Position numbers and translations under genes: made by a program. DNA of 64,000 bases, taken from a candidate division FCPU426 bacterium (GTDB taxonomy: Bacteria > Oederibacteriota > Muellerivitia > Muellerivitales > Muellerivitaceae). Positions within the stretch are counted from its first letter, which is position 1. Each line of letters begins with the position of its first letter. Location of the stretch: assembly GCA_003152075.1 (NCBI GenBank), contig PLZG01000064.1, positions 31-64,030 of the forward strand. The letters are read 5' to 3'. Below, in pieces: positions 14,514-63,998 of this stretch. Below the pieces are notes generated by a model, which saw only the letters and a list, made by a program, of their open reading frames with translations, was not told the DNA's origin and did no database searches.

Positions 14514-14942
14514 TTAAATGACGGCGAAGAAAGCGAAGGTCACCACCCCTATGACTTTCACCCCCTCGTCCTCGTCGATGGGGATGGGCTCGAAAGCCGG
14601 GTTTTCCGGCAAAAGATAGCCGCGGTTGTCCCGGTAGCCCAGGCGCTTGAGCGTGTTGCCGCCGTTCAAAGTGGCCACCACGACCTTGCCGATGCTAGGA
14701 ACGACGGAAGAATCCACCACCAGGAAATCCCCCGATTGGATACGCGCCCCCACCATGGATTCGCCCACGGCCTGCCAAACGCAGGTGGCTTCCGGATGGG
14801 GAACCATTTTCTTGAAAATATCCAGGCGCCTTTCCCGGTAGGTTTCCGGCGGGCCGGGCGTGCCGGCTTGCACGGGTGGCTCGACAAAGGACAGGATGAA
14901 AAACTTTAAAAGGCTGGAGGGTCCGATATATTCGGTTTCCAT
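14514..14942 (-). CDS. umuD: UmuD / LexA-like S24 peptidase (Pol V accessory subunit)
   Basis: GESMVGARIQSGDFLVVD...VVATLNGGNTLKRL is the S24 Ser/Lys dyad region. The likely start is METEY at 14942, preceded by AAGGAAAG. It lies upstream of umuC on the same strand. Confidence 0.75.
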   Translation of the reverse strand: METEYIGPSSLLKFFILSFVEPPVQAGTPGPPETYRERRLDIFKKMVPHPEATCVWQAVGESMVGARIQSGDFLVVDSSVVPSIGKVVVATLNGGNTLKRLGYRDNRGYLLPENPAFEPIPIDEDEGVKVIGVVTFAFFAVI

Positions 14943-15329
14943 TGTCACTTTCCTTTCTGAAACGAGATTGGTGAAGTGACCATCGCACCGCAAATCCTTG
15001 TTGGACTTTCAATTGAGTTGCGGGGCATGGTTATTCTCCTTGAGTGAAAAATAAATACGGAGTTCGGTTAGTCCCTGGGGTGGTTGAAAGGCTTCAACGG
15101 AGTTGTGGGACATGACAATAACTTAGCGATATAGGTTAAAGGTATACTCTTGTATCCCTCCTAATATTCGCTAAGGTCAAGTTTTTAAATTAGGCAGGTT
15201 TTACTTTGGGGGGATAATTGAGGTCGAGACGGTCATAAAAAAGTTGTAAAATCGGCCTGCCAAATAGGACTCATCACGGGGTGAACCATGAGGATGGCGT
15301 ACAAAATTTAATTATAGAAGAATGGAGGG

Positions 15330-16671: not shown

Positions 16672-17145
16672 TTGATGGAACAACATGACATCGTATTTCT
16701 GAAATCCTTCAGGGATTGGTTTGTTTCAATCTTCATGCTCCTGTTACCCCTGCCCCTATTCTGGTTTTTCTATCCCTGGTCTGGCTTTGAAAATGGAAAC
16801 AAGGTGTTGATTTATCCTTTGTTTATTGTTCTTTCCTTGTTTTTCTACGGTTTCTATAGAATTTTTTTGGTGCCCTATAGGCTTCAATTTCAAAATGAGG
16901 GGATTTTGGTTATAAAAAGCCTTCTTTTTCCAAAAGTCGTGGCAATCTCGGAAATACAATCGGTCCAGATCACCGAAAAAGAAGGGGGAAAGGGTTCAGT
17001 CCAAGCCCTTTATACGCTTCTTTTGAAAAACGGGGATCCTATTGAAATACCCTCATTAATCCAAATTGATTATTTTTTGGGAAAACTTTCCGCTCAAAAT
17101 CAACAAATCGAAATTAAAGATGAACGGTCGCATAAGAGGCTCTAA
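16672..17145 (+). CDS. Hypothetical small membrane protein (possible bacterial PH-like domain)
   Basis: 157 aa with two N-terminal TM helices. An RBS ggcgggg-agg lies before the ATG. Confidence 0.4.
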   Translation: MMEQHDIVFLKSFRDWFVSIFMLLLPLPLFWFFYPWSGFENGNKVLIYPLFIVLSLFFYGFYRIFLVPYRLQFQNEGILVIKSLLFPKVVAISEIQSVQITEKEGGKGSVQALYTLLLKNGDPIEIPSLIQIDYFLGKLSAQNQQIEIKDERSHKRL

Positions 17146-17300
17146 CAAAAATCCTTGGAACAATGACGTGCTTCGGACGCGCTGATGAACGCCGATGAAA
17201 AAAGCTTTAATCCCTTGTTTTCTTCAAATCTGCGCGTGCGTAGCACGTCTGCGTCCATCCTTGTTTGAATGCCGTTGAATGTTGTTAGAAGTTATAAGAG
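17140..17300 (+). repeat. MITE-like element A (~160 bp, terminal inverted repeats CTCTAACAAAA / TTGTTAGA, internal palindrome GCGCGTGCGTAGCACGTCTGCGTC)
   Basis: This is the reverse complement of 50540-50700 at about 85-90% identity. It starts at the stop codon of the 16672..17145 gene. Confidence 0.7.
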
Positions 17301-49264: not shown

Positions 49265-49335
49265 CTGTCATTAGGAGGCACCCCAATCGGGGTGTTTGCT
49301 GATGTGGCAACCGCAAGTGCAATTTATAGGTTTCT
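49265..49335 (+). repeat. Diverged unit of MITE-like element B including a terminator-like hairpin directly after clpB stop
   Basis: CTGTCATTAGGAGGCACCCCAATCGGGGTGTTTGCTG...GCAACCGCAAGTGCAATTTATAGG has the same architecture as the 46495 and 61534 units. Confidence 0.5.
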
Positions 49336-49803
49336 TCCTTTTCGAAAAATAAACAGGGAAAACGGTTTTTCCCAAGCGGGACATCCCTATTCGGGGGGGT
49401 GGCCGTTGGGTGAAGTTGGTGTTTGTGGCACCAGGGTGATAGCCTGTTTCTAGAAGATGACTTCCCGAAAGAAGTCCTCTTTCATCGTTTTTTCAGGCCC
49501 GGCCTGCAGCCGGGTTTGCCATCCGAGCCGTTCCATTGGTTTGCCCACCAAAGATTTCATTCATCCCGGTCTTCCTGTCCTTTGGAGTTGCACTCTTGAG
49601 GCGGGAGTCCGGTTTTTCAGTCCCCGGCCTGGGTATTTTCATGCCGGGACTGTTTTCCGTTTCACCCACGAAATTATGGCCTATTGACGAGGAAAGCCAT
49701 GGTTTCCTTCCACGAGGACCGGCTTTGGGAGCCGGCCCCGGGACCACCCCACCTAGGCTGAAACCTAGCCCATCGATGATCGGTGTTTCGCTAGGAGGAT
49801 GCG

Positions 49804-50085
49804 ATGAGAAAAGTAAAACTGGTCTCGTTTTTGGTTTTGAGCTTGGCCCTGTCGGTAGCGCTCCCCGCCTTGGTTTTGGGGCAATCAGTGCCTAAGCCCC
49901 CCGGCGGAAAGCCAACCCCTGTTCCCACATCGACCCCGACCCCTGTCATCGGGGATGACGATGGCGATGTGGACGAGGACGGGGTGGGTTGCTTGGGGGC
50001 GCTGGATTTCCTGTGCAATTGGGGTGGATGTTATCACTTCTACTATTCCAAGTTCGACGGCCAGGGGAGATGCGAACGCCAATAA
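49804..50085 (+). CDS. Small secreted Cys-rich peptide (hypothetical)
   Basis: 93 aa. The RBS aggagg lies 6 nt upstream. The signal peptide MRKVKLVSFLVLSLALSVALPALVLG is followed by a PT linker, an acidic stretch and 4 Cys (CLGALDFLCNWGGCYHF...GRCERQ). A terminator follows. Confidence 0.45.
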   Translation: MRKVKLVSFLVLSLALSVALPALVLGQSVPKPPGGKPTPVPTSTPTPVIGDDDGDVDEDGVGCLGALDFLCNWGGCYHFYYSKFDGQGRCERQ

Positions 50086-50108
50086 AACTGGAGAAGGTGC
50101 AATTGGGG

Positions 50109-50150
50109 CCGGTTCCCTTTGGGTAGCCGGCCTTTTTTTATTTATTGAGG
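50109..50150 (+). terminator. Rho-independent terminator
   Basis: The sequence is ggccggttccctttgggtagccggcctttttttattt. Confidence 0.6.
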
Positions 50151-50199
50151 AGGTCCATGGAAAAGCGCCAAAGGGGCCAGCATGGCCCTTTTGGCGCTC

Positions 50200-50329
50200 T
50201 TTAAAAAGATTAATTCAGCATGAACTTGTGGATAAAATGGCCTTGAAGCTCCTCGATGGGGAGATCAAGGATGGCCAGACGGTGAAAGTGGATTTTTCTA
50301 AAGGTGGGAAATTAATCATTAAGGTTTAA
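50200..50329 (+). pseudogene. Remnant copy of the clpB 3' end (last ~42 codons, ~85% nt identity to 49140-49264)
   Basis: It encodes [42 protein letters not shown]. The clpB C terminus is [40 protein letters not shown]. Confidence 0.75.
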
Positions 50330-50344
50330 CAAAAGAGGTTTGTC

Positions 50345-50539
50345 ATGCCAGCCAAGCCATCTCCTAAAAAATCCGGGTTGTCCCCCGACTACCATTACGA
50401 CGCTGATCATGATCAAGTCGAAATCCTCTGGAAATGCCTGCGCTGCGGCGAACTGATGCCGCGGGGTTCCCAACCTCCCGATAAATGTCCTTCCTGCGGC
50501 GCCCCCAAGACGGAATTCGTTTTATTGGATGAGGATTAG
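50345..50539 (+). CDS. Small zinc-ribbon protein (2x CxxC)
   Basis: 64 aa carrying CLRCGELMP...CPSCGAP. Its stop is immediately followed by MITE-like element A. Confidence 0.4.
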   Translation: MPAKPSPKKSGLSPDYHYDADHDQVEILWKCLRCGELMPRGSQPPDKCPSCGAPKTEFVLLDED

Positions 50540-50700
50540 AACCTCTAACAAAATTCAAAGGCATTGAAACAGGGATGGACGCAGACGTGCTACGCACGCG
50601 CAGATATGAAGAAAACAAGAAGTTTTAAGCTTTTTAATCGGCGTTCATCAGCGTTTATCACTGTTCCAAGGATTTTTGTTAGAGCCTCTTAATCTCTTTT
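50540..50700 (-). repeat. MITE-like element A, second copy (inverted relative to 17140-17300)
   Basis: It has terminal inverted repeats CTCTAACAAAAT...GATTTTTGTTAGAG and an internal palindrome gacgcagacgtgctacgcacgcgcag. Confidence 0.7.
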
Positions 50701-50714
50701 CGACGGAGAAAAAC

Positions 50715-51103
50715 ATGAGGGAAGTCAAAGTTTCGAAGGGGCCCGGCCAGCTGGCCCAACAGGTGGAGATCGGCCCCATCACTTGACCGCCGATGAGCCC
50801 ACGACCAACCAGGGGGAGGATTTGGGCCCCAATCCCTTCGAGTACCTGGCTGCCGCCCTGGGCGCCTGCACGGCCCTGACCGCCAAACTTTACGCGAAGC
50901 GGAAGGAATGGCCCCTGGAGGACACCGACGTCCGGGTCGCCCTCACCCGGCAGGATGATTTGACGGTCTTTGACCGGAAGGTGAAATTCGTGGGGAATCT
51001 GGACCAGGCCCAAAGGGAACGGCTTCTGGAGATCGTCAACCATTGCCCGGTCCATAAGGCCCTTACCGGCCGCATCCGGGTTGATACGGCGCTTGTGGAA
51101 TAA
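50715..51103 (+). pseudogene. OsmC/YhfA-family protein gene with a -1 frameshift in a C-run (pseudogene or homopolymer sequencing error)
   Basis: Frame A reads MREVKVSKGPGQLAQQVEIGPIT*. The shifted frame continues (P)HHLTADEPTTNQGEDLGPNPFEYLAAALGACTAL...VNHCPVHKAL, the OsmC core. One extra C in ggcccc at ~50772-50777 would restore a single ORF. Confidence 0.5.
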
Positions 51104-51127
51104 TTTTCCGGCCTAAAGGAGAACCGC

Positions 51128-51466
51128 GTGGCGATAACCAAGGAAGAACTGCTGGAAAAGATGAAGGAAAAGAATGTGGTGGTCCTGGATGTCCTGCCCT
51201 TTGCGGATTATGAAAAGCTGAGGATCAAGGGGTCGGATAGCTTGCCGATCATCGGAATACGCCCGGAGGTTTTCGCCCGGGCGGTCGAGGCCAAATACGG
51301 GAAGGACAAGTTCTTCGTTACTTATTGTTCCGGCTTTCCTTGCCGCCATTTCATGGAAGCGGCCGATGCCCTCGTCAAACAGGGCCTTCAAGCGCAGGGT
51401 TATCCGGGCGGTATCCAGGAATGGGCCGAATCGGGACTGCCGGTGGAAGGAACCCAGGTCAAATAA
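51128..51466 (+). CDS. Single-domain rhodanese-like sulfurtransferase
   Basis: 112 aa. ...VVVLDVLPFADYEKLRIKGSDSLPI...FFVTYCSGFPCRHF is the active-site Cys loop. Confidence 0.7.
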   Translation: MAITKEELLEKMKEKNVVVLDVLPFADYEKLRIKGSDSLPIIGIRPEVFARAVEAKYGKDKFFVTYCSGFPCRHFMEAADALVKQGLQAQGYPGGIQEWAESGLPVEGTQVK

Positions 51467-51575
51467 ATCGACGGTCAAAGTGGATGTGTCCAAGGGCGGC
51501 CTGCCCTCCGACCTGCTTGCCGAAGCTTTAGCGTAGGCGGGAGCTTTATGCGTAGGAGGGGGAACTAATGATTAA
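51300..51575 (+). repeat. Repeat R copy 1 (3' ~170 nt of rhodanese gene + ~100 nt downstream ending in clpB-C-terminus-like tag)
   Basis: It is the template for the copies at 54267-54590 and 62536-62730. The downstream part encodes TVKVDVSKGG...GELMIK*. Confidence 0.8.
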
Positions 51576-51680
51576 GTCGTAAAGTGTTAAATGGTCAATG
51601 TTCCCCGGTGACAACAAAGATAAGCTTCTGACAGCCTCCCCCTCTATCCCATAGTCTAAATTTGCCATTTTCCCTTATTA

Positions 51681-54266
51681 ATGGCCATGGCATGTCCTAT
51701 GCACCCTCAATCCAAACGACTTTTTCCTTTTGCCGGAGAGGTGTGCGTGGAAATAAGGAAGTTTTCCCCAAAATTTCGGTTGTTTGGTCCTTTCGGATTT
51801 ACAGGTCCCTCCAGGTCGCAAACCCGGTATTGGACAAGGGGTATCTTCTTGGCCGTGAGCCTCTTCTGGGGGATCACCCAACCCGGAACTAGCCAACAGC
51901 TTGGAATCTTCACGGTCGGCAGCACTGTTTATCCCACCCAGGGTTTGCGGCGTGTGGCCAAGATTGTGTTGAGCAATACGAACTATCAAGGGCTTTACGG
52001 CGCGGCGATCGACGCGGCCAACGGTTACGCTTATTGGGTAGGACGCAACGGCTCGCTCAGTAAAATCAATTTGACGACCTTCACCGAGGAAAGCACGATC
52101 GTCGGCCTCGGGCAATCCTATGGTTCTTTTGTCGATGACCCGAATGGATTTGGTTATTTTGAATCCGGGGCGAATATCTATAAGGTAAAACTTGGCGGCC
52201 CCGCGGTGCTTCCCATACTAGAAGCCACGCTTGTTCCCGGTGGAAATTTTTACGGCGGGGTGATTGATAAGAGCAACGCGGACCCCACCAAGCATTACAT
52301 CTATTTTATCGATGGCAATAAACCCGCAACGGTCTACAAGTATTTGCTGCCCTCGCCCTCCGGTGGTGACTTGGATAATAAACTGCCCACTTTGGTGGGT
52401 TCGGTTCTCTTAAACAGCCCTAACTTTCCTACTACGGGTTTCACCTACCATGGTGTGATAGACACCGGAGCCGGCTTCGCCTACTTTTCCGGTTTTAACA
52501 CCAATCAGATAGCCAAAATCGCCCTGAATGGGGCGGGTACCCCCACCGAAGTTGGCGTCATAACAACAACCGATCCGGCGACCACTGCTTATGGTTTCCT
52601 CCCTGATATTGACGCGACCGGCGCGACCCATTACGCCTATTTGGGAACCTATGTACCTCACGTGCTTGCGGATGTGGTTAAGATCAACCTGACGAGTTTT
52701 ACCGAGGTCTCCAACGCGACACTCAACTCGGGGACAGGAGGCTGTAACGGCCCCACCGCAATGGAACAAATGCTTTCCGCCGGGCTGGGCGATTCGACCA
52801 GCGGCTATACGGTTTATGGAACGGACGGCGTTTTTCCGATGAAGGTTTTCAAGATCAAGAACAACGCCGGTAATTTGGCTCCAACCGAAAACGCCGGGGC
52901 GCCCCTTTCGCTCCTGGGGGGGACAAGCGTTCCACCTTGTGATGGAAATGCCGGAGTAGCCGATGCCTCTCCCGATGGCGGCCTCACTTATCCCTATGGG
53001 GAAGTTTTTGCCCAGGGTTCGGTGATCGACAATGGGGCCGGTTACGCTTATTTTGGAACCGATAGTGGACCGGGACAAATAATAAAGGTAGCCTTCTCTC
53101 AAAAAGCGGCCATCAAGGGAACAAAGGTTGTGTTGGCCCAAGCGGTCACCGTAAACGACCTCAATTTTTATTCCACCGCGGCGGGCGGGCATGTGCGTCT
53201 GGCCATTTACGACAATGCCGCCACTCCCAACCTGCTTTGGGATTCGGGCGCGTTGGTCAATGGCGCTACCGGATGGATCACGGCCACCATCGCTTCGGGT
53301 AGCCCCTCTTCCCTGACCCTCAACCCCGGAACTTACTGGCTGTGCTGGCAAGTGGATACCACGTTGGACATTCCCAGCTACAGTTCGGGAAACCCGGGCG
53401 ACGGTTTTTTACAGGATCAGGCTTTCGGGGCTTATCCGGGAATCTTGAACACAACCCAAAGTACCTCCGAAACCTGGAGCGAGTACCTGGATTACACCGT
53501 TTCCGGGGCTACCCCCAGCGCGACAGCTTCCCCGACTCCGACATTAACTCCAACACAAACGGGGACCAATACCTTGACGTCTACGCCGACAAGTACTCCT
53601 TCGAGCACTCCCACCACCACACCCAGCAATAGCCCGACGAATACAGCCACCAACAGTCCGATTCCAAGTCCCACCAATACGGGAACCCTTGCCCCCACCA
53701 ATACCGCAACGAGTAGCCCTACGAATACGTCCACGAACACGCCTTCTCAAACGCCAACATCCACGGCCACGAATAGCTTGACCCCGACCGCATCCAACAG
53801 CCCAAGCGCGACGGCGACAGCATCCTTGACCAACAGCCCGACTTTGTCGCCCACAGGGACGGCCTCATCGACACCGACTTTGACCCCAACCCAAACGGAA
53901 ACAGGCACACCGACGAATACCCTGTCCGCTACTCCCACCGGGTCACTTACCAACACCCCAACCCCGGCGGTGACGGGAGTGGTGATCGGGCTACCCTATC
54001 CCAATCCCATCCGGGGCGAAGGGCCCCTTAACATTGACGTGCAGGGCCCATCGGGAACTACCCTTACCTGGGATGTTTTTACGGCGGCTTATCGTAAGAT
54101 CGCGGGCGGCTCCCAGCCTGTTTCGGGAAGCACTACCATCGCCTGGGACCTAACCGATAAGTTTGGCACCCCCGTGGCCAACGGCCTCTATTACATCCGG
54201 ATCAAGGTGACGGTGGGTGGGGCAGTGACCACTAAAATTTTGAAGGTACTTGTCTTAAATCATTAA
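51681..54266 (+). CDS. Large secreted protein, beta-propeller-like repeats + Thr/Ser/Pro linker + T9SS-type C-terminal sorting domain
   Basis: A signal-like stretch GIFLAVSLFWGITQPGTS is present. Repeated GYAYW/GFGYF/GFAYF segments suggest a propeller. The linker spans 53510-53980. The C-terminal domain reads LPYPNPIRGEGPLNIDVQ...GLYYIRIKVTVGGAVTTKILKVLVLNH. The exact start is uncertain. Confidence 0.55.
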   Translation: MAMACPMHPQSKRLFPFAGEVCVEIRKFSPKFRLFGPFGFTGPSRSQTRYWTRGIFLAVSLFWGITQPGTSQQLGIFTVGSTVYPTQGLRRVAKIVLSNTNYQGLYGAAIDAANGYAYWVGRNGSLSKINLTTFTEESTIVGLGQSYGSFVDDPNGFGYFESGANIYKVKLGGPAVLPILEATLVPGGNFYGGVIDKSNADPTKHYIYFIDGNKPATVYKYLLPSPSGGDLDNKLPTLVGSVLLNSPNFPTTGFTYHGVIDTGAGFAYFSGFNTNQIAKIALNGAGTPTEVGVITTTDPATTAYGFLPDIDATGATHYAYLGTYVPHVLADVVKINLTSFTEVSNATLNSGTGGCNGPTAMEQMLSAGLGDSTSGYTVYGTDGVFPMKVFKIKNNAGNLAPTENAGAPLSLLGGTSVPPCDGNAGVADASPDGGLTYPYGEVFAQGSVIDNGAGYAYFGTDSGPGQIIKVAFSQKAAIKGTKVVLAQAVTVNDLNFYSTAAGGHVRLAIYDNAATPNLLWDSGALVNGATGWITATIASGSPSSLTLNPGTYWLCWQVDTTLDIPSYSSGNPGDGFLQDQAFGAYPGILNTTQSTSETWSEYLDYTVSGATPSATASPTPTLTPTQTGTNTLTSTPTSTPSSTPTTTPSNSPTNTATNSPIPSPTNTGTLAPTNTATSSPTNTSTNTPSQTPTSTATNSLTPTASNSPSATATASLTNSPTLSPTGTASSTPTLTPTQTETGTPTNTLSATPTGSLTNTPTPAVTGVVIGLPYPNPIRGEGPLNIDVQGPSGTTLTWDVFTAAYRKIAGGSQPVSGSTTIAWDLTDKFGTPVANGLYYIRIKVTVGGAVTTKILKVLVLNH

Positions 54267-54590
54267 AAGGACAAGTTCTTCATCACTTATTGCTCGGGTT
54301 TTCCCTGCCGCCATTTCATTGAAGCGGCCTATGCCCTCGTCCAACAGGGCCTTCAAGCGCAGGGTTATCCGGGCGGTATCCAGGAATGGGCCGAATCGGG
54401 ACTGCCGGTGGAAGGAACCCAGGTCAAATAAATCGACGGCAAAGCCTGCCCCGAGCTTGCCTGCGGTGAGCGACCGACCTGTCCCCAGAAGCTGCCTGTC
54501 TACCGAAGCTTTAACGTAGGTAGATAGCGTAGGGGGAAGGGAGTCGAATCCGGTCGGCGTGCCCAAGGGCGGGGAACTGATGATCAAGTA
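54267..54590 (+). repeat. Repeat R copy 2 (truncated rhodanese 3' end, begins exactly at the stop codon of the upstream gene)
   Basis: It encodes DKFFITYCSGFPCRHFIEAAYALVQQGLQAQGYPGGIQEWAESGLPVEGTQVK*, which is 93% identical to the rhodanese C terminus. The copy ends with ...VPKGGELMIK*. Confidence 0.8.
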
Positions 54591-54843
54591 AGTCGGCCTG
54601 CCCATCCCGCAAATTCCCGCGGATATTATTAACGCCTTGTAAAATAATCCGTTTTAAATCTATACCATTGCGGCAAACCCTGAATTCTCTCTTACTCCAC
54701 CCCCGGGTGGAGAAAATGATTGACTTTATAAACCCATGTTTTTATAAAAGGTAACTGTTTTCCCGCTTACACCGCTATTTCCCCACATAAGCCGGGTAGA
54801 AATTAAATTTTTTCCATTTCCATGGATACCAGGAGAGGTTTGC

Positions 54844-57800
54844 ATGAATTCACACTCATATAAGAAACGTTCGCGCCGGGCCATTTCCCTCACGGCGGTT
54901 ATCCTCACAGCCGCCTTTCTTTTCACCCCCTCCGGCAAACTTTGGGCGATCTGTACCCCCCTCACGGTGACCGTCACGACGACGGCAGGTGACACCAGCG
55001 CCGGGTCCTTGGGTGACGCCATCAACCAGATCAACGCCAGCCCGTGCGGCGGCACCATCAACCTTTCGGGCATCGCCACCGGCACCACCATCACCCTGAC
55101 AGGCAACCTTCCTTACATCACCCAGAGCGTGACCATTTTGGGTAACAACGTCAACGTCAGCGGGAACAGCAGTTACGGCATCCTCAACCTGGGCGGCGGG
55201 GTGAGCGTGGCCGCGGGATTGAACGACAGCATCTCCAATATCAATCTCATCAACGGCAAGGCCCAAGGCAGCAACGGCGGCAGTTACAACGAGGGCGGCG
55301 GCGGGGGATTGGGCGCGGGCGGCGGCATCTTCGTCAATTCGGGAGTGACCCTGACGGTCAACACCGTCAGTTTCAACGGTGATTCGGCGGTGGGCGGCAC
55401 GGGTGGAAACGTGACCAGCGTGGGTAATTTTAGCCCAGGGACTTACAGCGGCGGCGGCGGTGGGATCAACGGGTCGGGCGCGGGTGTGAATGGTTATTAC
55501 AGTAGCGGGGTTGAATACAGCGGCGCGGGCGGCGGCGTGAACGGAGGCACGGGTTCAACCGCGGATAATCAAAATGGCGGTAATGGCGGATGGGGCGGCG
55601 GCGGCGGCGCGGCGGGCTGGGGGGCCACTGGCGGCAATGGCGGTTTCGGCGGCGGTGGCGGGGGATCGGACTTGTTCCAGGGCGGCAATGGCGGTTTTGG
55701 TGGGGGCGGGGGCGCGGATGGCCTGGGTTATACGGGCGGGTTTGGGGGGGCTTACGGCGGCCGGGGCGGATGCAGCGGCTGTTACCAAAATGCGGACCAG
55801 GCGGGCGGCGGGGGCGCGGGATTGGGCGGCGGTATATTCTTGTACCAAGGCGCGGCGCTGAACATCGCCGGTAGTACCTTTACCAGCAACACGGTCCAAG
55901 GCGGGGCCCCCGGATTGGGGGCTGGCTCCATCAGTACGGGCGGACAGGGTTTGGGCCAGGATATTTTTACCTATGGTTCGGCGGTGGTTTTCAACGGTTC
56001 TTCCATTACTACCGTGCCGGACACAATCGCGGGCACGGGCAGTGTGGTCGTCTCGGGGACGGGTTCTGTCACCCTTTCGGCGGTCAACACTTATAGCGGC
56101 GGCACCACCCTTTCGGGCGGTCTATTAGCCATCGGCAACGACAATAATATGGGCACGGGCAATCTCACCTTCGATGGCGGGACCCTTTTCACCACCGCGG
56201 GAATCACCTCGTCCAAAGGCATTTCGGTCACCGGCAACGGCGGCACCTTCAACGGGAACGGCTTCAACTCCACCTTATCCGGGGCCATCACGGGCACGGG
56301 GCTTTTAGGGGTGAGGGGTTCGGGCGCTTTGACCCTGAGCGGGAACAACAGTTCCTTCAGCGGCGGACTCTCGGTCACGGGCGGGACGCTGGACATCGGC
56401 AACGCGAACAACCTGGGCACGGGAACCCTGACCCTGGATGGTTCCAAGCTTCAAACCACGGCGGGTGTGAACGCTTCGAACAACCTATCTTTGACCTCCA
56501 ACAACGGGACCATCGACACCAACGGGTTCAACTCCACCCTCAGCGGCACGATCAGCGGCAGCGGGGCTTTGACCAAGATCAACGCCGGGACCCTGACCCT
56601 GACGGGAACCAACAGCTACGGCGGCGGCACCACGTTGACCGCTGGAAGACTGAACATCAACAACGATAACAATTTGGGAACGGGCTTGCTGGCCTTGAAC
56701 GGCGGCGTGACCTTACAGACGGCGGCGGGCATCAATTCCGCCACCCGGTCCATCGTCCTGACGGGCAGCGACACTTTCGACTCGAACGGGTTCAATTCCA
56801 CCCTGGGCGGGACCATCAGCGGCAGTGGAGCTTTGACCAAGATCAGCGCGGGAACCTTGACCCTGACAGGCACCAACAGCTACGGCGGGGGCACCACGGT
56901 TTCCGGCGGCACCCTGAACATCAACAACGACAACAACCTGGGTTCGGGCTTGCTGGCCTTGAACAACGGGACGACCCTCCAGACGGCGGCGGGGATCAAT
57001 TCCGCCTCCCGGTCCATCGTCCTTACCGGGATCGATACCTTCGATTCCAACGGTTTCAATTCCACCCTGGGTGGGGTCGTGAGCGGCAGCGGCTCCTTGA
57101 CCAAGATCAGCGCGGGGAGCTTGACCTTGACCGGTACCAACACCTACACCGGCGGTACCACCTTGACCGGCGGCACCCTCAGCGTCGGCAACGACAACAA
57201 CCTGGGCACGGGCAACCTAACCTTCAACGGCGGCACCCTGCAGACGTCCGCGGGCATCACCTCGTCCAAGAACGTGGTATTGACCGGGAACAACGGCACC
57301 TTCGACAGCAACGGGTCCAACTCGACCCTTTCGGGCAATATCACCGGCACGGGCGGCTTGAACAAGAATGGCCTGGGCACCTTGACCCTTAGCGGTTCCA
57401 ACAGCTACAGCGGTTTCACCGATATCAACGCGGGGACGCTGGCCCTGGGCAGCTCGACCGCCCTTTCCTCTAATTTCACGGCGGTCACCATCGCCTCGGG
57501 CGCGGTCCTGGGCCTGGGCGGGTACAACGCCACCATCGGTTCCTTGAACGGGTCCGGCGGCGTCTCCCTGGGTTCGGGTTCCCTGACGGACGGCGGGAAC
57601 AACACGGGTGCTTCCTTCGGCGGGGTCATCTCCGGCACGGGCACCTTCGTGAAGGTCGGAAGCGCGGCCTTGACCTTGACGGGCACCAACACCTACAGCG
57701 GCGGCACCACCTTGAGCAACGGTACCTTGAGCGTCGGCAACGACAATAACCTGGGAACCGGGACCCTGACCCTCAACGGCGGCACCCTGCAGACCTCGGC

Positions 57801-60800
57801 GGGAATCACCTCGTCCAAGAACGTGGTATTGACCGGGAACAACGGCACCTTCGACACCAACGGGTTTAACTCAACCCTGTCGGGCGTGATCAGCGGCTCC
57901 GGCGGACTCAATAAGAACGGCTCGGGGATATTGACCCTTTCAGGTTCGGATACTTACACGGGATTCACGAACATCAACGCCGGCACGCTTTTCATGGGCG
58001 CGGCCAATGTTTTGTCCAATAGCACGACGGTTTCACTGGCCAGCGGAACGGTTTTGGACTTGGGTAGCAACAACCAATCCATCGGTTCGCTCACGGGCTC
58101 GGGCGGGGTTTCCCTGGGTTCGGCTTCCTTAACGGCGGGAACCAACAACCAAACCACGGCCTATTCGGGTGTCATCGGCGGAACGGGTTCCCTGACCAAA
58201 ACCGGGACGGGCACCTTCACCCTTTCGGGAACCAACACCTTCAGCGGCGGCACGACCTTCACTGCGGGCATCGTTTCCGTGGGCAACGACAACAACCTGG
58301 GCACGGGGAACCTCACCTTCAACGGCGGCACCCTGCAGACCTCGGCGGGCATTACTTCCTCCAAGAACGCGGCCTTTACCTCCAACAACGGAACTTTCAA
58401 CACCAACGGGTTCAATTCAACCTTGAACGGTGTGTTGAGCGGAGCGGGGGCCTTGACCAAAACCGGGAACGGGACCTTGACCTTGACCGGGACCAACACC
58501 TATGGCGGGGGTACCACGGTCAACGGCGGCACCTTGAACGTCGACAATGACAATAACCTGGGAACTGGCCTTTTGGCCTTGAACGGGACGACCCTTCAAA
58601 CGGCGGCGGGTATCAACTCGGCCAGCCGGTCCATCGTCCTGGCGGGTTCGGATAATCTCGATACCCAATCCTTCAATTCCACCTTTGGCGGGATAGTGAG
58701 CGGCACGGGAAGCCTGACCAAGACCGGCTCCGGGAGCTTGACCTTGACGGGCGGCAACACCTACAGCGGGGGGACTTCCATCAACGGCGGCCTCTTGAGC
58801 GTGGGCGCGGACAACAACCTGGGGACGGGTAACTTGGAGTTCAATAGCTCGACCCTCCAACTTTCCTCCAGCTTTAACACGGCCAAGAACGTCAGCCTGG
58901 GCGCGGGCGGCGTGACCGTGGACACGAACGGGAACATCCTTTACGTGGGCGGGACCGTCTCGGGAACGGGAAGGCTCACCAAGACCGGATCCGGAGCCCT
59001 CACCCTCACGGGGACCAATAGTTACAGTGGTGGGACCAACCTGAACGCCGGGACCCTGGACGTGGGTAACGACAACAACCTGGGCACGGGGAACCTGACC
59101 TTCAACGGCGGCACCTTGCAGACCACGGCGGGGATCAGTTCTTCCAAGAACATCTCCCTGACGGGCAATGGCACCTTCGATTCCAACGGTTCCGATTCGT
59201 CCCTTTCGGGGGTCATCAGCGGCACGGGCCAGTTCACCAAGACCGGCGCGGGTTCCCTCACGGTGACCGGGGCCAATACTTACACGGGACTGACCGATGT
59301 CAACAACGGTTCGCTGGTGCTGAGCGTCAGCGGGGCCTTGCGGGCCACCGCGGCCGTCACCGTGGAATCGTCCGGGACGCTCGACCTGGGCGGCAAGGAC
59401 CAGACCCTGGGGAACCTTTCCGGCTCGGGCCTGGTGCTTTTCGGCGCCGGCAACCTGAAGGTGGGGGATTCCACCAACCAGCTTTTCTCCGGCGTCATGT
59501 CCGGCGCGGGAAGCCTGACTAAGACGGGAAGCGGCGCCCTGACCTTGACGGCCGCCAACAGCTACAGCGGCGGCACCAGCGTTTCCGGCGGCACCTTGAA
59601 CGTGGACAACGACAACAACCTGGGAACGGGGAACCTCGTCCTCGACGGCGGCAGCCTGCAGACGGCGGCGGGGATCACTTCCGCCAAGAATATCCAGCTG
59701 ACGTCCAACAACGGCGCCTTCGACAGCCAGGCTTTCAATTCCACCCTCTCCGGCGACATTTCAGGCGTGGGCGGCCTGACGAAATTAGGCTCCGGTGCCT
59801 TGACCATGACCGGTGTCAATACTTTCACGGGCGGCATGCTGGTTTCGGCCGGCACGGTGGCCTTGGGCGACGCCGGTTCGTTAACCGCCCGGATCAACGG
59901 GCCTGTCTCCATCGCCAGCGGGGCGACCCTGACGGGCTACGGGTCCATCCTGGGCGTCGTCAACAACAACGGAACGGTCCAGCCAGGGGGCAACAACGGC
60001 ACCCTGTCTATCGGCCAACTGTTTGACACGGCCACCAGCTCGACGAACATCGAATTGGCCCCCGGCAATCTCCAATCCGGAAGGCTGAACGTCCTTTTCG
60101 GCCAATTGAACGGCGCTTTGACTATCGCCGCCGATCCGGGCAATTATGGGGTACGGTACAAGTACATCATCCTCACCACGGGAGCCCCGGTGACGGGTAG
60201 CTTCGCCAGCGTGTCGGATAACCTGTCGTATATGACGCCAACGCTTCTTTACGGCAACAACGCGGTGACGCTGGTGCTGACCCGCAACAACGCGGACTTC
60301 ACGACCTCCGCGGCCACGTCCAACCAAAAGGCGGTGGCGACGGTCCTGAACTCGGCGATCCCCACGGCCTCGGACGATTTCGTGGCCCTCTTGAACGTGC
60401 TTTACGGCCTTCCGGCGGCCCAACAGCAGTCGTCCCTGGCCCAGATGAACGGCTCGTCCTACGCACCCCTGGCGGCCGTGATGGTGAACAACAACGCTTC
60501 CTCGGTCAACCTGCTGATGCAAAGGGCGGGCGGGCCCGGCTTTGTGCCGCCCTCCTCGTTCCAATCCATGCTGGTGGGCCGCGCGGCCTTCGACCTGACC
60601 GACACCGCCCCCAGCCTCTCGGCGGGGCTGAAGGAAGCCCAAAACTCGCCCGAGAATTCCGGGCTCTGGGTGGAAAGCTCCAGCGGTTCCTTAAGCCAGG
60701 ACGGCAACGGCAACGTGGTGGGCTACAAGTCCCAAAACACGGGTTTCCTGGGCGGCTACGACGTGGCCCTGGCCAAAAACCTGCGGGGCGGCCTGTGGGG

Positions 60801-61488
60801 TTCCTACAACCGCATGGACATGAACTCCACGGACGCGGCCGATACCTCCAGCGTGGACAACTACCTGGTGGGCCTCTACGGAGGGCCCAGCTTCGGAAAC
60901 GTGGCCCTCACGGGCGTGGTGGCCTATGGGGTCGACCACTATAAGACCACCCGCGCGGTGGATTTGGGCAGCCAAAGCTCACAGGCCCTGGGCGTTTACG
61001 ACGGTTCGGAACTGATGGGTGCCCTGCGCGCCTCCTACGCCCTGAAGGTCTCGGGCGTCTCGGTCAATCCCCTGGCGGGCTTGCAGTACACCCGGCTGTA
61101 CGAGAACGGATTCACCGAAACCGGCGCGGGCGACCTGAACCTGACCGTGGCTTCCCAGCAATACCAATCCCTGAGGCCCCTGGTGGGCTTCGACGCCTCC
61201 AAGGGTTTCGACCTGGGCGGGGGCACCCAACTGGTGCCGATGGTCAGCGCCAACGTGAGCGAGGAACTGATGGCCTTGAACCCGGCGGTCTCAGCCTCCC
61301 TGGCGGGGGCCCCGGGATCCAACTTCTTGGCAACGGGCATCAATCCCAGCCCCACCCTGGTGGGCCTGTCGGCGGGGGCAAAGCTTTCCTTCGGGCAGGG
61401 GCTCAACCTCTTCGCCCAATACTTGGGCGGCTTCGGCGGCGGACAGAGCTCCAACGCCTTCAACGGCGGGGTGGATTTCTCACTCTAG
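54844..61488 (+). CDS. Type Va autotransporter adhesin (2214 aa): signal peptide, ~27 PATR-type passenger repeats, C-terminal beta-barrel translocator
   Basis: The signal peptide is MNSHSYKKRSRRAISLTAVILTAAFLF. Repeated ~83-aa units read GTLTLTGTNTYSGGTTLxxGTLSVGNDNNLGTGxLTFNGGTLQTSAGITSSKNVVLTGNNGTFDTNGFNSTLSGVISGSG. An autochaperone/linker follows (SSLAQMNGSSYAPLAAVMVNN). A beta-barrel with alternating hydrophobic residues extends to ...NAFNGGVDFSL. Confidence 0.8.
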   Translation: MNSHSYKKRSRRAISLTAVILTAAFLFTPSGKLWAICTPLTVTVTTTAGDTSAGSLGDAINQINASPCGGTINLSGIATGTTITLTGNLPYITQSVTILGNNVNVSGNSSYGILNLGGGVSVAAGLNDSISNINLINGKAQGSNGGSYNEGGGGGLGAGGGIFVNSGVTLTVNTVSFNGDSAVGGTGGNVTSVGNFSPGTYSGGGGGINGSGAGVNGYYSSGVEYSGAGGGVNGGTGSTADNQNGGNGGWGGGGGAAGWGATGGNGGFGGGGGGSDLFQGGNGGFGGGGGADGLGYTGGFGGAYGGRGGCSGCYQNADQAGGGGAGLGGGIFLYQGAALNIAGSTFTSNTVQGGAPGLGAGSISTGGQGLGQDIFTYGSAVVFNGSSITTVPDTIAGTGSVVVSGTGSVTLSAVNTYSGGTTLSGGLLAIGNDNNMGTGNLTFDGGTLFTTAGITSSKGISVTGNGGTFNGNGFNSTLSGAITGTGLLGVRGSGALTLSGNNSSFSGGLSVTGGTLDIGNANNLGTGTLTLDGSKLQTTAGVNASNNLSLTSNNGTIDTNGFNSTLSGTISGSGALTKINAGTLTLTGTNSYGGGTTLTAGRLNINNDNNLGTGLLALNGGVTLQTAAGINSATRSIVLTGSDTFDSNGFNSTLGGTISGSGALTKISAGTLTLTGTNSYGGGTTVSGGTLNINNDNNLGSGLLALNNGTTLQTAAGINSASRSIVLTGIDTFDSNGFNSTLGGVVSGSGSLTKISAGSLTLTGTNTYTGGTTLTGGTLSVGNDNNLGTGNLTFNGGTLQTSAGITSSKNVVLTGNNGTFDSNGSNSTLSGNITGTGGLNKNGLGTLTLSGSNSYSGFTDINAGTLALGSSTALSSNFTAVTIASGAVLGLGGYNATIGSLNGSGGVSLGSGSLTDGGNNTGASFGGVISGTGTFVKVGSAALTLTGTNTYSGGTTLSNGTLSVGNDNNLGTGTLTLNGGTLQTSAGITSSKNVVLTGNNGTFDTNGFNSTLSGVISGSGGLNKNGSGILTLSGSDTYTGFTNINAGTLFMGAANVLSNSTTVSLASGTVLDLGSNNQSIGSLTGSGGVSLGSASLTAGTNNQTTAYSGVIGGTGSLTKTGTGTFTLSGTNTFSGGTTFTAGIVSVGNDNNLGTGNLTFNGGTLQTSAGITSSKNAAFTSNNGTFNTNGFNSTLNGVLSGAGALTKTGNGTLTLTGTNTYGGGTTVNGGTLNVDNDNNLGTGLLALNGTTLQTAAGINSASRSIVLAGSDNLDTQSFNSTFGGIVSGTGSLTKTGSGSLTLTGGNTYSGGTSINGGLLSVGADNNLGTGNLEFNSSTLQLSSSFNTAKNVSLGAGGVTVDTNGNILYVGGTVSGTGRLTKTGSGALTLTGTNSYSGGTNLNAGTLDVGNDNNLGTGNLTFNGGTLQTTAGISSSKNISLTGNGTFDSNGSDSSLSGVISGTGQFTKTGAGSLTVTGANTYTGLTDVNNGSLVLSVSGALRATAAVTVESSGTLDLGGKDQTLGNLSGSGLVLFGAGNLKVGDSTNQLFSGVMSGAGSLTKTGSGALTLTAANSYSGGTSVSGGTLNVDNDNNLGTGNLVLDGGSLQTAAGITSAKNIQLTSNNGAFDSQAFNSTLSGDISGVGGLTKLGSGALTMTGVNTFTGGMLVSAGTVALGDAGSLTARINGPVSIASGATLTGYGSILGVVNNNGTVQPGGNNGTLSIGQLFDTATSSTNIELAPGNLQSGRLNVLFGQLNGALTIAADPGNYGVRYKYIILTTGAPVTGSFASVSDNLSYMTPTLLYGNNAVTLVLTRNNADFTTSAATSNQKAVATVLNSAIPTASDDFVALLNVLYGLPAAQQQSSLAQMNGSSYAPLAAVMVNNNASSVNLLMQRAGGPGFVPPSSFQSMLVGRAAFDLTDTAPSLSAGLKEAQNSPENSGLWVESSSGSLSQDGNGNVVGYKSQNTGFLGGYDVALAKNLRGGLWGSYNRMDMNSTDAADTSSVDNYLVGLYGGPSFGNVALTGVVAYGVDHYKTTRAVDLGSQSSQALGVYDGSELMGALRASYALKVSGVSVNPLAGLQYTRLYENGFTETGAGDLNLTVASQQYQSLRPLVGFDASKGFDLGGGTQLVPMVSANVSEELMALNPAVSASLAGAPGSNFLATGINPSPTLVGLSAGAKLSFGQGLNLFAQYLGGFGGGQSSNAFNGGVDFSL
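56100..60200 (+). repeat. Intragenic ~250-bp tandem repeats (PATR units) with several near-identical neighbours
   Basis: For example, units at 56560-56810 and 56810-57060 differ at only a few positions. Confidence 0.8.
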
Positions 61489-61533
61489 AAATTGATCGAG
61501 GTCATCGCGGGGAGCCGCTTTGACCTCGAAGTG

Positions 61534-61612
61534 ATAATAGCTGTCATTGCGATGAGTGCCCCGCGAATAGCGGGGCGGTTACGACGAAGCAACCTCAGTT
61601 TAAATATGCCTT
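61534..61612 (+). repeat. MITE-like element B, single unit
   Basis: The sequence is GCTGTCATTGCGATGAGTGCCCCGCGAATAGCGGGGCGGTTACGACGAAGCAACCTCAGTTTAAATA. It is preceded by the hairpin TCGAGGTCA...TGACCTCGA after the autotransporter stop. Confidence 0.7.
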
Positions 61613-61645
61613 TACTAAATGGCATTTAATTAACAAGGATAAGCG

Positions 61646-62443
61646 ATGAAAAAATTATTTCTTATCGGAACACTGTTTTTGGTTTTAGCCGGACCAGTTT
61701 TGGGGGACGAAGGCAAGGACGCCGTCCAAAATGGCGACCAGGCTTTTAAAACCCGCGATTACACCGCCGCTTTCCAGTTGTACCAACAGGCGGCGAGGGA
61801 AGGAAACGCCTCGGCCAAGAACAACCTGGGCTATCTTTACGAGCACGGTTTGGGGGCCAAGCAGGACTACGCCCAGGCAGTGTCTTATTACCGTTCCGCC
61901 GCCGAATCGGGCAACGCGGCGGCCCAAAACAACCTGGGCCGTCTTTACGCCAAGGGGTTGGGCGTGGCCAAGGACATGCGGGAATCTTTCCGCCGGCATT
62001 CCCAAGCCGCCCTGCGGGGCGACCCGGAGGGGGAATATTGGGTGGGCTATGATTACGCATTGGGCCGGGGCGTGAAACGCGACCTTACCAAGGCCGCCGG
62101 TTGGATGAAGCAATCGGCCCAGGCTGGTTACGCGCCGGCGCAAGCCGGTTTGGCCTCCCTCTACCAAGAGGGCCTGGGTGTGAAGAAAGATGAATCCCAG
62201 TCTAAGGAATGGGCCCACAAGGCCAAGGCCTCCCAAGCCTCCGAAGTTGAGGCGGCCAAGGAACCCACGGACTCTTATAGCTACACGGTGACCGCGGGGG
62301 ATTGCCTCTGGAAGATTGCCCGGCGCTTGTTGGCCAAGGGCCGCTTGTGGAGCGTGATCTACGAGGCCAACAAGGACCGTGTCCACGATCCTAAGCTGAT
62401 ACATCCGGGAGAGATTCTCACCATCCAAAAAAGCAACAGTTAA
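61646..62443 (+). CDS. Secreted Sel1-repeat protein with C-terminal LysM domain
   Basis: A signal peptide is followed by five Sel1-like repeats (NNLGYLYEHGLGAKQDYAQAVSYYRSAAESGNAAAQNNLGRLYAKGLGV...). The LysM domain is YTVTAGDCLWKIARRL...IHPGEILTI. Confidence 0.7.
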   Translation: MKKLFLIGTLFLVLAGPVLGDEGKDAVQNGDQAFKTRDYTAAFQLYQQAAREGNASAKNNLGYLYEHGLGAKQDYAQAVSYYRSAAESGNAAAQNNLGRLYAKGLGVAKDMRESFRRHSQAALRGDPEGEYWVGYDYALGRGVKRDLTKAAGWMKQSAQAGYAPAQAGLASLYQEGLGVKKDESQSKEWAHKAKASQASEVEAAKEPTDSYSYTVTAGDCLWKIARRLLAKGRLWSVIYEANKDRVHDPKLIHPGEILTIQKSNS

Positions 62444-62535
62444 CCCGCCCTCCGGTATTCCTCGCCGGGCCAATAGATTGTTGTATGGCTTGTCAACCGA
62501 AGGTTAAAGGTAGGTAGGTGGCTTGGCATCCGGGC

Positions 62536-62730
62536 TTCATTTTCCCTGCCGCCATTTCATGGAAGCGGCCGATGTCTTTGTCAAACAGGGCCTTCAAGCG
62601 CAGGGTTATCCGGGCGGACTCCAGGAATGGGCCGAATCGGGATTGCCGGTGGAAGGAACCCAGGTTAAGTAAGTCGACAGTCAAAGTCGATGTGTCCAGG
62701 GGTCGCCAGTTATCCATTATTTACATTTAA
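62536..62730 (+). repeat. Repeat R copy 3 (shorter truncated rhodanese 3' end + clpB-like tag TVKVDVSRGRQLSIIYI*)
   Basis: It encodes ...PCRHFMEAADVFVKQGLQAQGYPGGLQEWAESGLPVEGTQVK* in the rhodanese frame. Confidence 0.8.
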
Positions 62731-62771: not shown

Positions 62772-63998
62772 ATGAACCGGACCAACATGACTACCCAAAG
62801 CCGAAACCCCACTTTCATTATCCTCATCCTGGGCGCCCTCTCGACCGTCAGCCCCTTTTCCATCGACATGTACCTTCCCTCCTTTCCCCAGATCGCCCAA
62901 AGCCTGGGCTGTCCCACCGCGCGGGTTTCCCTGTCGCTCTCCAGCTATTTCATCGGCATGGGGCTGGGGCAGATACTCTACGGCCCCTTCCTCGACCACT
63001 TCGGCCGCAAAAGGCCCCTCTATTTCGGGTTGGGGCTTTATATTCTCTCGTCCGTGGGCTGCCTAGCCGCCGGTTCCCTGGAGATCCTCATCGCCCTGCG
63101 CTTCTTGCAGGCTCTCGGCGGTTGCGCGGCGGGGGTGGCTTCCATGGCCATGGTGCGGGACTTCTTCCACGTCAAGGAAAGCGCGAAAGTCTTTTCCCTG
63201 CTCATGCTCATCCTGAGCGTTTCACCCCTCTTGGCGCCAACCGTGGGGGGCTTCGTGACCCTACACTTGGGTTGGCGTTGGATATTCGTTCTTTTGGCGG
63301 CCATTTCCCTAGCCATCCTGGCGGTGGTCATTTTCTTTTTACCCGAAGGCCACAAGCCCGACCCCAAGGCCACCTTGAGTTTCAAGAAAAGCCTCAAGAA
63401 CTTCGCCATGATCCTCAAGGAACCCAAGTTCCACGCCTATGCCATCGTGGGTTCGCTTTCCATCTCGGGCCTGTTCGCCTATATCGCCGGCTCGCCCATC
63501 ATCTTTTTGGAAATCTACAACGTGGGGCCCAAGTTCTATGGCGCCATCTTCGCCCTTCTCGCGGCGGGCTTTATCGGGGGAAGCCAGGTGAATATCTGGC
63601 TCCTCAAGCGTTATTCCAGTGAGGAGATATTGAGGAAGGCCATCTGGGGCCAATGCCTGGTGGGGATGCTGTTCTTGCTCTTTGCCCTGGCCGGCTGGCT
63701 CAACCTGGCGGGAACCCTGGTCTTCCTATTTGCCGTGCTGTCCTGCGCCGGCATGGTCAACCCCAACGCGGGGGCCCTGGCCCTGAGGCCCTTCGGCCGT
63801 CACGCGGGGAGCGCCTCGGCTTTGTTGGGGTTCATCCAGATCAGCTTCGGGTCCCTGACCTCGGGGGCGGTGGGGTTCTTCAATTTCAAGAGCGCCCTTC
63901 CGACCATCACCATTTTGGCACTGACGGCCTTGGCGGGCCTACTGGCCTGCGGTGAGCTTGTCGAACCCGTCTCGGCCCTGGTCAAAAAAACCAGATGA
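62772..63998 (+). CDS. Bcr/CflA-family MFS drug-efflux transporter
   Basis: MYLPSFPQIAQSLG...GRKRPL...LRFLQALGGCAAGVASMAMVRD are family motifs. The product is 408 aa with 12 TM helices. Confidence 0.85.
   Translation: MNRTNMTTQSRNPTFIILILGALSTVSPFSIDMYLPSFPQIAQSLGCPTARVSLSLSSYFIGMGLGQILYGPFLDHFGRKRPLYFGLGLYILSSVGCLAAGSLEILIALRFLQALGGCAAGVASMAMVRDFFHVKESAKVFSLLMLILSVSPLLAPTVGGFVTLHLGWRWIFVLLAAISLAILAVVIFFLPEGHKPDPKATLSFKKSLKNFAMILKEPKFHAYAIVGSLSISGLFAYIAGSPIIFLEIYNVGPKFYGAIFALLAAGFIGGSQVNIWLLKRYSSEEILRKAIWGQCLVGMLFLLFALAGWLNLAGTLVFLFAVLSCAGMVNPNAGALALRPFGRHAGSASALLGFIQISFGSLTSGAVGFFNFKSALPTITILALTALAGLLACGELVEPVSALVKKTR

Follow-up and report, generated by a model that had tools for sequence, protein, structure and literature searches.

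A nested array of integrase-less cassettes between gene-end repeats downstream of clpB in candidate division FCPU426

Downstream of clpB in an uncultured soil bacterium of candidate division FCPU426, small blocks of genes are arranged in a nested series between direct repeats of the clpB 3' end, three of which are joined to the 3' end of a rhodanese gene, and no recombinase gene lies among them. The array falls within a window of 64,000 nucleotides (contig PLZG01000064.1 of assembly GCA_003152075.1), and the visible genome amounts to ~72 kb, that is, the window plus the next 8.4 kb; the latter is read from L121, which is the same contig as the window (window coordinate = L121 coordinate + 51645). 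The ClpB protein is 84% and 77% identical to that of two metagenome-assembled genomes, the one at 77% carrying the FCPU426 label. Between 49.2 and 62.7 kb the order is clpB-O1, A, clpB'-O2, B, O3, C, rhod'-O4, D, rhod''-O5, bcr, where O1 to O5 are the five clpB 3' remnants that border blocks A to D, and rhod' and rhod'' are truncated rhodanese copies. The reading that we prefer, at a probability of about 0.45, is that the array reflects homology-driven (RecA-type) exchange through the repeats of serially inserted, integrase-less cassettes. An initial annotation had described the rhodanese copies as the mark of an accretion hotspot whose target was the rhodanese gene. The hotspot is upheld by a variant with an empty site for block C (contigs L006 and L008) and by differing cargo in two close relatives (L099 and L110), so that related genomes do not show the same invariant content throughout; the choice of target was incomplete, given that the repeat is composite, the array starts at clpB, and the rhodanese gene itself sits inside an inserted and decaying block.

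Composite repeats of clpB and rhodanese gene ends

The intact rhodanese gene (51128-51466, + strand; 112 aa, Pfam Rhodanese, PF00581) is followed by two partial copies in direct orientation, in agreement with the initial annotation. Copy 2 (c2, 54267-54439, +) is truncated at its 5' end and runs from codon 58, so as to cover the last ~55 codons; it matches 51302-51474 (+), the 3' part of the rhodanese region that we call copy 1 (c1), at 94.8% over 173 nt (E 4e-75), and its first base is indeed the base after the TAA stop (54264-54266) of an 861-aa gene. Copy 3 (c3), together with a truncated clpB remnant, occupies 62541-62707 (+), of which 62541-62672 represents the last ~44 rhodanese codons and 62673-62707 the remnant O5; the match between 62541-62698 and 51335-51492 is 92.4% over 158 nt (E 5e-59). 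No two of the truncated rhodanese copies start at the same point: their left ends lie at the equivalent of ~51260 in the related contig L110, at 51302 in c2 and at ~51335 in c3, and the repeats as a whole vary in length from ~50 to ~320 nt. Antisense open reading frames (ORFs) cover each rhodanese copy (51113-51493, 54255-54605 and 62493-62717, all on the - strand), and the second of these is annotated publicly as a 116-aa gene; they are most likely spurious.

A clpB 3' remnant is joined to each of the rhodanese copies, making the repeated unit a composite, and it is this clpB component, both here and as a repeat in its own right, that had been missed. The outer anchor gene is clpB itself (46670-49264, +; 864 aa with Pfam ClpB domains), whose last ~125 nt (O1, 49140-49264, +) recur downstream in a blastn repeat search. 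The first recurrence, clpB' or O2 (50199-50329, +), consists of the last ~42 clpB codons and a stop; it is 88-90% identical to O1, and the ORF containing it gives a Pfam match to ClpB_D2-small. O3 (51467-51582, +; ATCGACGGTCAAAGTGGATGTGTCCAAGGGCGG ... GGAACTAATGATTAAGTCGTAA) comes directly after the rhodanese stop. The sequence past c1 reads TAA ATC GACGGTCAAAGTGGATGTGTCCAAGGGCGG ... GGAACTAATGATTAAGTCGTAA, which corresponds to the ClpB C-terminus (TVKVD.SKGGEL.IK*) with a 61-nt insert inside, and O3 matches the clpB 3' end of the related contig L012 at 87%. O4 (54432-54591, +) is split into O4a (54432-54444) and O4b (54543-54591), the latter matching the remnant that lies past the rhodanese gene in L099. 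The repeat limits first proposed, 54590 and 62730, were therefore roughly right, but only since the repeat runs past the rhodanese stop into an indel-bearing clpB remnant.

The inserts that interrupt O3 and O4 belong to a small repeat family, E, of ~60-110 nt (...CCTG(C/T)CCTCCGACCTGC...GAAGCTT...GCGTAGG...), in which we found no significant fold. E3 (51500-51560, ~61 nt) lies within O3, and E4 (~54445-54542) separates O4a from O4b. Two further copies are found downstream of a luciferase-like gene past the window (L121 19844-19953 and 20304-20410), where they lie on either side of some eight tandem repeats of 43 nt with a ggtagacg motif. As a crossover site E can be ruled out, for the junction of the variant without block C lies to the left of E.

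The distribution of differences between c1 and c2 is uneven. All nine are confined to the first 76 of the 173 aligned nt (P about 6e-4), and the remaining 97 nt (51378-51474 = 54343-54439) are 100% identical. To the right of this block O3 and O4 are diverged again, each being split by its E insert at a different position. Because this island of perfect identity is flanked on both sides by 10-20% divergence, it can be read as a homologous crossover or gene-conversion tract; it looks like the pattern left by such a tract, and not like that of a site-specific crossover with an overlap of 6-8 bp.

The copies also differ in their affinities. Within the 3' block, c1 and c2 carry common derived states relative to c3 and to the rhodanese genes of L099, L100 and L110. 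By comparison, c3 differs from c1 over its full length, has ancestral states in common with the same three relatives (for example AAG TAA at the stop), and is closer to the L099 rhodanese (94.9%) than to c1. The 5' part of c2, which is more diverged than c3, combines unique changes with residues of the functional alleles of other lineages (I63 as in L101, Q83 as in L100). Synonymous and non-synonymous changes number 4:4 in c2 and 5:3 in c3, counts that are too few to tell import from decay in place.

Presence and absence of cassette C, and the local nature of the hotspot

Two contigs from other samples, built by other assemblers, L006 (844 nt, ERZ28654574 / SAMN07124935) and L008 (718 nt, ERZ27254092), match the OsmC-rhodanese region save for one gap in the alignment, at the point of divergence between copies 1 and 2. 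Each has nine of the nine c1 diagnostic bases and then passes directly into the sequence downstream of c2 (54440-54635), such that the missing segment, about 51475-54439, corresponds exactly to the interval between the repeats and the junction falls inside the 97-nt block. Over the ~0.7-0.8 kb covered by each contig the background otherwise matches, and three further short contigs (L004, L005 and L007) are of the C-present type. A chimeric origin of the C-less form is unlikely, because the 97-nt stretch is shorter than the final k-mer of 141 implied by the name of the L008 contig and because two pipelines agree. Cassette C thus appears, on the strength of these contigs, to be carried by some natural populations and not by others. 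We saw no presence/absence variants of A, B or D.

The array as a whole is not an assembly artefact, because three metagenome assemblies made independently of one another gave contigs with 100% identity throughout it; moreover, the repeat copies differ among themselves.

Comparison with relatives indicates which parts of the locus are old. In distant relatives, with rhodanese genes 72-80% identical to that of the window, neither a clpB remnant past the rhodanese gene nor partial copies are found. In one of these relatives (L094) the rhodanese gene is followed by two further genes and a homologue of bcr (84% in protein sequence, by tblastn), and in another (L134) the OsmC...rhodanese operon adjoins a luciferase-like gene; because of these layouts we take the flanking genes to be old neighbours and the material between them to have been added. 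Within the clade at at least 88% identity, L099 has an intact rhodanese gene (90% identical overall, 97% in the last 165 nt) with an O4b-type remnant next to it, and past this rhodanese-O unit lies a different cargo, a convergent gene of 700 aa. L100 carries the 3' end of an Ohr/OsmC-family gene followed by DUF7130, OsmC and rhodanese genes and an O3-type remnant, with no clpB' upstream of DUF7130. In L110 the 3' end of bcr is separated by a short AT-rich spacer from a rhodanese gene truncated at about codon 45-49, which is joined to an uninterrupted 17-codon clpB tail. Both O alleles that adjoin the anchor in sister lineages, the O3 type of L100 and the O4b type of L099, are present together in the array. 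The junction between rhodanese and clpB remnant is, on these comparisons, ancestral to the clade at at least 88% and has been copied as a unit, with different cargo in different lineages.

The array is a local hotspot and not a habit of the phylum. We found no gene-end repeats in ~100 kb of related loci (L012, L092, L094, L131 and L132) and no clpB 3' repeats in L011-L017, which rules out the latter; nor does the first 49 kb of the window contain comparable gene-end repeats. Second rhodanese genes in L092 and L103 are true diverged paralogues and not examples of the same phenomenon, and the identity of such second paralogues in relatives is no more than 44-49% in protein sequence. The repeat copies of the array, at 92-95% identity and with a downstream clpB remnant common to all, cannot on this evidence be decayed tandem paralogues with independent flanks.

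Cargo, neighbouring genes and the array past the window

The genes between the repeats encode secreted proteins or redox proteins only, and we found no integration, replication, transfer or virion genes among them; cargo genes A, C and D have no mutual homology. Cassette A (49265-50198, +) comprises ~540 nt of non-coding sequence, a gene for a 93-aa signal-peptide protein (49804-50085) without a Pfam match, and terminator-like hairpins. Block B (50330-51466, +) contains a DUF7130/rubredoxin-like gene (50345-50539), a sequence resembling a miniature inverted-repeat transposable element (MITE-like, 50536-50691), an OsmC gene (50716/50783-51103) and the intact rhodanese gene. The order in the corresponding redox operon of relatives is OsmC-DUF7130-(Pyr_redox)-Redoxin-DSBA-rhodanese, and block B is without its Redoxin and DSBA genes. 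The OsmC gene (50716-51103) is frameshifted at a C-run, placing the first ~22 codons out of frame relative to the intact 128-aa gene of L100, and the frameshift is the same in all assemblies of the strain. The MITE-like element between DUF7130 and OsmC has terminal inverted repeats (50531-50556 / 50671-50696) and an inverted, 85%-identical copy at 17133-17297, and is absent from the same position in L100. Block B is the decaying remnant of a redox-stress operon.

Cassette C (51475-54266, +) consists of the rest of O3, ~100 nt of upstream region and the gene for the 861-aa secreted protein (51681-54266). The initial description of this protein as a beta-propeller with a C-terminal sorting domain holds in part at best: its sole domain signal is a weak C-terminal FlgD_ig-like match, and one homologue carries PF18962. 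The best homologues of cassette C are 50-62% identical and occur in glycoside-hydrolase neighbourhoods, with neither rhodanese nor clpB nearby. Cassette D (54592-62540, +) encodes a PATR-repeat protein of 2214 aa (54844-61488) and a Sel1/LysM protein (61646-62443), both with signal peptides. The Sel1/LysM assignment stands, as does that of the right-hand neighbour of the array, a bcr-type major facilitator superfamily transporter (62787-63998, +, by Pfam). The label 'autotransporter' for the 2214-aa protein does not, since Pfam detects 15 PATR repeats in it and no beta-barrel translocator domain.

The same architecture, which the initial annotation had not followed past the window, continues to about +8 kb. 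For a luciferase-like monooxygenase gene, the promoter and 5' end are found in three copies (L121 14975-15263, 16914-17035 and 18695-18983; about +66.6 to +70.6 kb in window terms), the first and third copies being 98% identical over 263 nt. They separate two minus-strand genes, for a 432-aa protein and a 408-aa NHL-repeat lipoprotein, and the intact luciferase-like gene lies at the right end. The topology is that of the rhodanese array on the other strand: an anchor, followed by units of cargo and repeat that are transcribed away from it. The repeat here is a gene 5' end, unlike the 3' ends of rhodanese and clpB, so that a stretch of 25 kb makes use of two or more unrelated repeat sequences; in the relatives L133 and L134 the luciferase-like 5' end is single-copy. 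A core common to the luciferase and rhodanese/clpB repeats was sought and rejected: the only sequence in common is the 10-mer CCAGGTCAAA, GGTCAAA is frequent here, and the match is not significant. Between bcr and this second array lies an AT-rich islet (L121 12395-14860) encoding a 463-aa protein with a weak GmrSD_N match and a D12-class (Dam-type) adenine methyltransferase; it has no flanking repeats and is probably a restriction or defence insert.

The sole integrase in the window, at 1057-2142 as originally reported, is a tyrosine integrase of a separate, lower-GC integrative element, the right end of which constitutes window positions 1-2330; an excisionase-like gene with a helix-turn-helix lies nearby. 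All public contigs break ~700 nt upstream of this integrase, and similarity to a 98%-identical strain stops at ~2327, the apparent end of the element. An exact match of 14 nt with the 3' end of clpB (AGTTGATGTTAAGA, 2219-2232; E 0.023) is located ~95 nt inside this apparent end; it is not conserved in the O copies and is probably due to chance. No link between this integrase and the array can be demonstrated. The search for a cognate recombinase that the initial annotation had suggested yielded none between 2.2 and 64 kb of the window, nor in the 8.4 kb that follow, and scans of viral contigs gave no matches.

The window as a whole has no tRNA or transfer-messenger RNA (tmRNA) genes, and no known RNA families were detected at 45-64 kb. 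A palindromic repeat at 13831-13981, flanked by umuC and a PD-(D/E)XK gene, has matches on both strands in intergenic sequence of L100 and L101, and looks like a small interspersed element common to the clade; in the surrounding interval (12407-14993) the PD-(D/E)XK nuclease gene lies between genes for a umuC-like polymerase and a Peptidase_S24 (UmuD/LexA-like) protein. Three secreted glycoside hydrolases (GH16/malectin, GH64 and GH18) at 5100-6250, 8500-8900 and 10500-11600 have long Thr/Pro/Asn-rich linker repeats that are up to 91% identical between genes, which suggests recombination or conversion between them.

Origin of the array and comparison with known systems

In proposing how the array was built, we need to account for a layout in which every layer is an intact gene end, a cargo and a truncated copy of that end, and it is because of this regularity that we envisage serial insertion by single crossovers, a step common to the homology-driven and the integrase models. 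Integrase-less cassettes of one or two genes, mostly for secreted or surface proteins, would have been added one at a time downstream of clpB. Each insertion would be a single-crossover (Campbell-type) recombination of a circle carrying a copy of the junction sequence, this being the clpB 3' remnant O, fused in blocks B, C and D to the rhodanese 3' end, and each would leave the gene end intact next to the anchor, with a truncated copy of it past the cargo. At the present day, RecA-type recombination between the repeats would delete cassettes and could re-insert circles consisting of a cassette plus a repeat, gene conversion would homogenise parts of the repeats, and cassettes would move between related lineages that have a common anchor. 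New cargo might originate by replacement inside an existing cassette, with a breakpoint that varies in the dispensable distal copy; the variable left ends of the truncated copies may exist because such breakpoints fall at different places in that copy. The circular intermediates, the enzyme, the order of events and the first formation of each cassette are parts of this scheme that we infer.

Several considerations weigh against homologous recombination as the whole explanation. It accounts for the deletion and re-insertion of a cassette, but not for how the cassette first acquired its flanking copy of the anchor, which needs an illegitimate or site-specific event, and this at least five times in the clade. 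Repeats of a gene end that regenerate the intact gene are the classic signature of an integrase. A recombinase may act in trans from outside the ~72 kb seen, and GACGGTCAAAG, situated where the clpB homology starts and near the end of the c1/c2 identity, could be its crossover core. Finally, the evidence for the C-less form consists of two short contigs and not of reads.

These points lead to the strongest alternative, which we nevertheless consider doubtful and over which homologous recombination is favoured: that the cassettes are non-autonomous integrative elements, comparable to cis-mobilizable elements (CIMEs) or pseudo-SCC elements (SCC, staphylococcal cassette chromosome), on which a trans-encoded tyrosine or serine recombinase acts, at a short core where the 3' ends of rhodanese and clpB meet. 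In that case the repeats would be attL and attR, and each element would supply a replacement gene end. An intact gene with partial copies at three gene ends, the precise empty site for cassette C, and compact cargo-only cassettes all transcribed away from their anchor would agree with such an origin, for which there are published precedents of integrase-less accretion (PMC5704250; 10.1101/2020.12.28.424599). The candidate core GACGGTCAAAG does coincide with two homology breakpoints, in that the clpB homology of each rhodanese-O unit starts there and the c1/c2 identity stops just past it; but GGTCAAA has 28 copies in the window, and the second breakpoint is also the point of the E4 insertion. 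We found no arm sites or convincing common core across the repeats and no sequence common to the cargo side of the O copies that might represent a P' arm. Neither in nor near the array is there an integrase, the one at 1057-2142 belonging to its own element, and viral contigs gave no matches. The extents of the repeats are variable, and the 97-nt island of identity is not expected from crossover at an overlap of 6-8 bp. For these reasons, to which the variable left ends and the use of a gene 5' end by the third repeat family can be added, site-specific integration into the rhodanese 3' end, as originally proposed, is not demonstrated and is probably too narrow a description. Neither of the two leading models explains the first joining of new cargo to a truncated rhodanese-O unit.

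An improbable but more far-reaching possibility is a gene-capture system that works without a recombinase, or with a so-far unknown one, in which the copy of the anchor end plays an attC-like role. Circles of a cassette and an anchor repeat would be released and recaptured by any genome that bears the anchor, and the few fixed loci concerned (clpB 3', rhodanese 3' and luciferase-like 5') would give FCPU426 populations access to a reservoir of secreted and surface proteins that can be shuffled and vary between strains.

The array might instead have arisen with no mobile cassettes at all, by segmental (tandem) duplication of the rhodanese-O interval in place, followed by internal replacement or loss of genes. 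The C-less form would then represent a RecA deletion between the 97-nt repeats, and deletions between repeats of ~100 nt are common; the derived 3' states common to c1 and c2 are also those of a copy made within the lineage. We give this account a low probability. The cargoes of A, C and D are mutually non-homologous and would require many independent replacement events. The 5' part of c2, more diverged than c3 and with the allele states of other lineages, the greater closeness of c3 to the L099 gene than to c1, and the match of the two O alleles to different sister lineages are at odds with copying in place.

An integron-like cassette array of the CALIN type (cluster of attC sites lacking integron-integrases), with the repeats as attC sites, is very improbable despite its co-oriented units of gene plus repeat and an array free of integrase, for the coding 3' ends of rhodanese and clpB can be recognised in the repeats, the single-stranded DNA folds of which are no more stable than shuffled sequences on either strand (z -0.5 to +1.2), and the gene that precedes the array is clpB and not IntI; jointly, integron-like and artefact readings merit a few per cent.

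If cassettes move by anchor-derived repeats alone, related strains could shuffle and exchange small sets of genes without dedicated mobility genes, which would bear on the origin and spread of the small strain-specific gene islets seen in metagenomes. Cassette C would be a concrete and still-segregating example in a phylum without cultured members. Should a trans-acting integrase be responsible, the locus would represent an accretion site of the CIME or pseudo-SCC type at a protein-gene end, apparently the first to be described in this candidate phylum. The locus also cautions that repeats of gene 3' ends are not proof of an integrase.

The structural features of the array have analogues in several mobile element systems, of which streptococcal CIMEs and the tycheposon islands come closest. 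In streptococci, CIMEs, and tandems of these with integrative and mobilizable elements (IMEs), are elements without integration genes that remain bordered by att repeats and accumulate in tandem at protein-gene 3' ends (PMC5704250). Those at the 3' end of fda, associated with ICESt1 and ICESt3 of Streptococcus thermophilus (ICE, integrative and conjugative element), resemble the array in having integrase-less tandem elements with the intact gene at one end. However, these have a short att core, and an ICE or IME related to them is known to have the cognate integrase, whereas the array has repeats of ~50-320 nt with variable ends, nested cassettes of one or two genes, and no known cognate integrase. 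Tycheposon islands of Prochlorococcus grow by repeated integration at a single site, which pushes older elements outward, and cultures are heterogeneous for them (10.1101/2020.12.28.424599). They share with the array degenerate cargo remnants separated by partial target copies, and heterogeneity of presence and absence; but their targets are tRNA and tmRNA genes, their att sites are of ~40 nt and integrase-bearing elements are abundant, while the targets in the array are the ends of protein genes, and we saw no relative with an integrase.

In staphylococci, SCC and pseudo-SCC elements at the 3' end of rlmH (orfX) include recombinase-less cargo elements in tandem, with direct repeats and independent presence and absence. 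Their repeats are ~15-bp sites for the CcrAB serine recombinases, and neither such a recombinase nor a short conserved site was found in the array. In Escherichia coli, e14 and phage 21 insert in icd, bringing a substitute 3' end and leaving a ~165-bp pseudogene of the icd 3' end. The likeness extends to a 5'-truncated copy of ~50 codons with scattered substitutions at the far end, but e14, a prophage remnant of 15 kb, has an integrase of its own and represents one insertion only, and the cassettes described here are small, serial and integrase-less. The translocatable units of the insertion sequence IS26, circles of cargo and one repeat that are lost or re-inserted beside an existing repeat, also via RecA, are similar in that each cargo segment is followed by a direct repeat; the IS26 repeat encodes a transposase, and that of the array is a pseudogene fragment of a host gene. 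Set against these systems, the array has the target-end direct repeats of CIME and pseudo-SCC elements, one belonging to the intact gene and the other to a truncated copy, and a precise empty site in the case of C, without their cognate recombinase in 2.2-64 kb and the next 8.4 kb; it has neither the mobility or virion genes between repeats that mark prophages, ICEs and IMEs, nor the attC hairpin folds and adjoining IntI gene and attI site of integrons. The accretion footprint of the array is of a kind known from CIMEs, pseudo-SCC elements and e14 in icd; its cassettes are small and nested, and no cognate recombinase or convincing short core was found for them in the ~72 kb covered.

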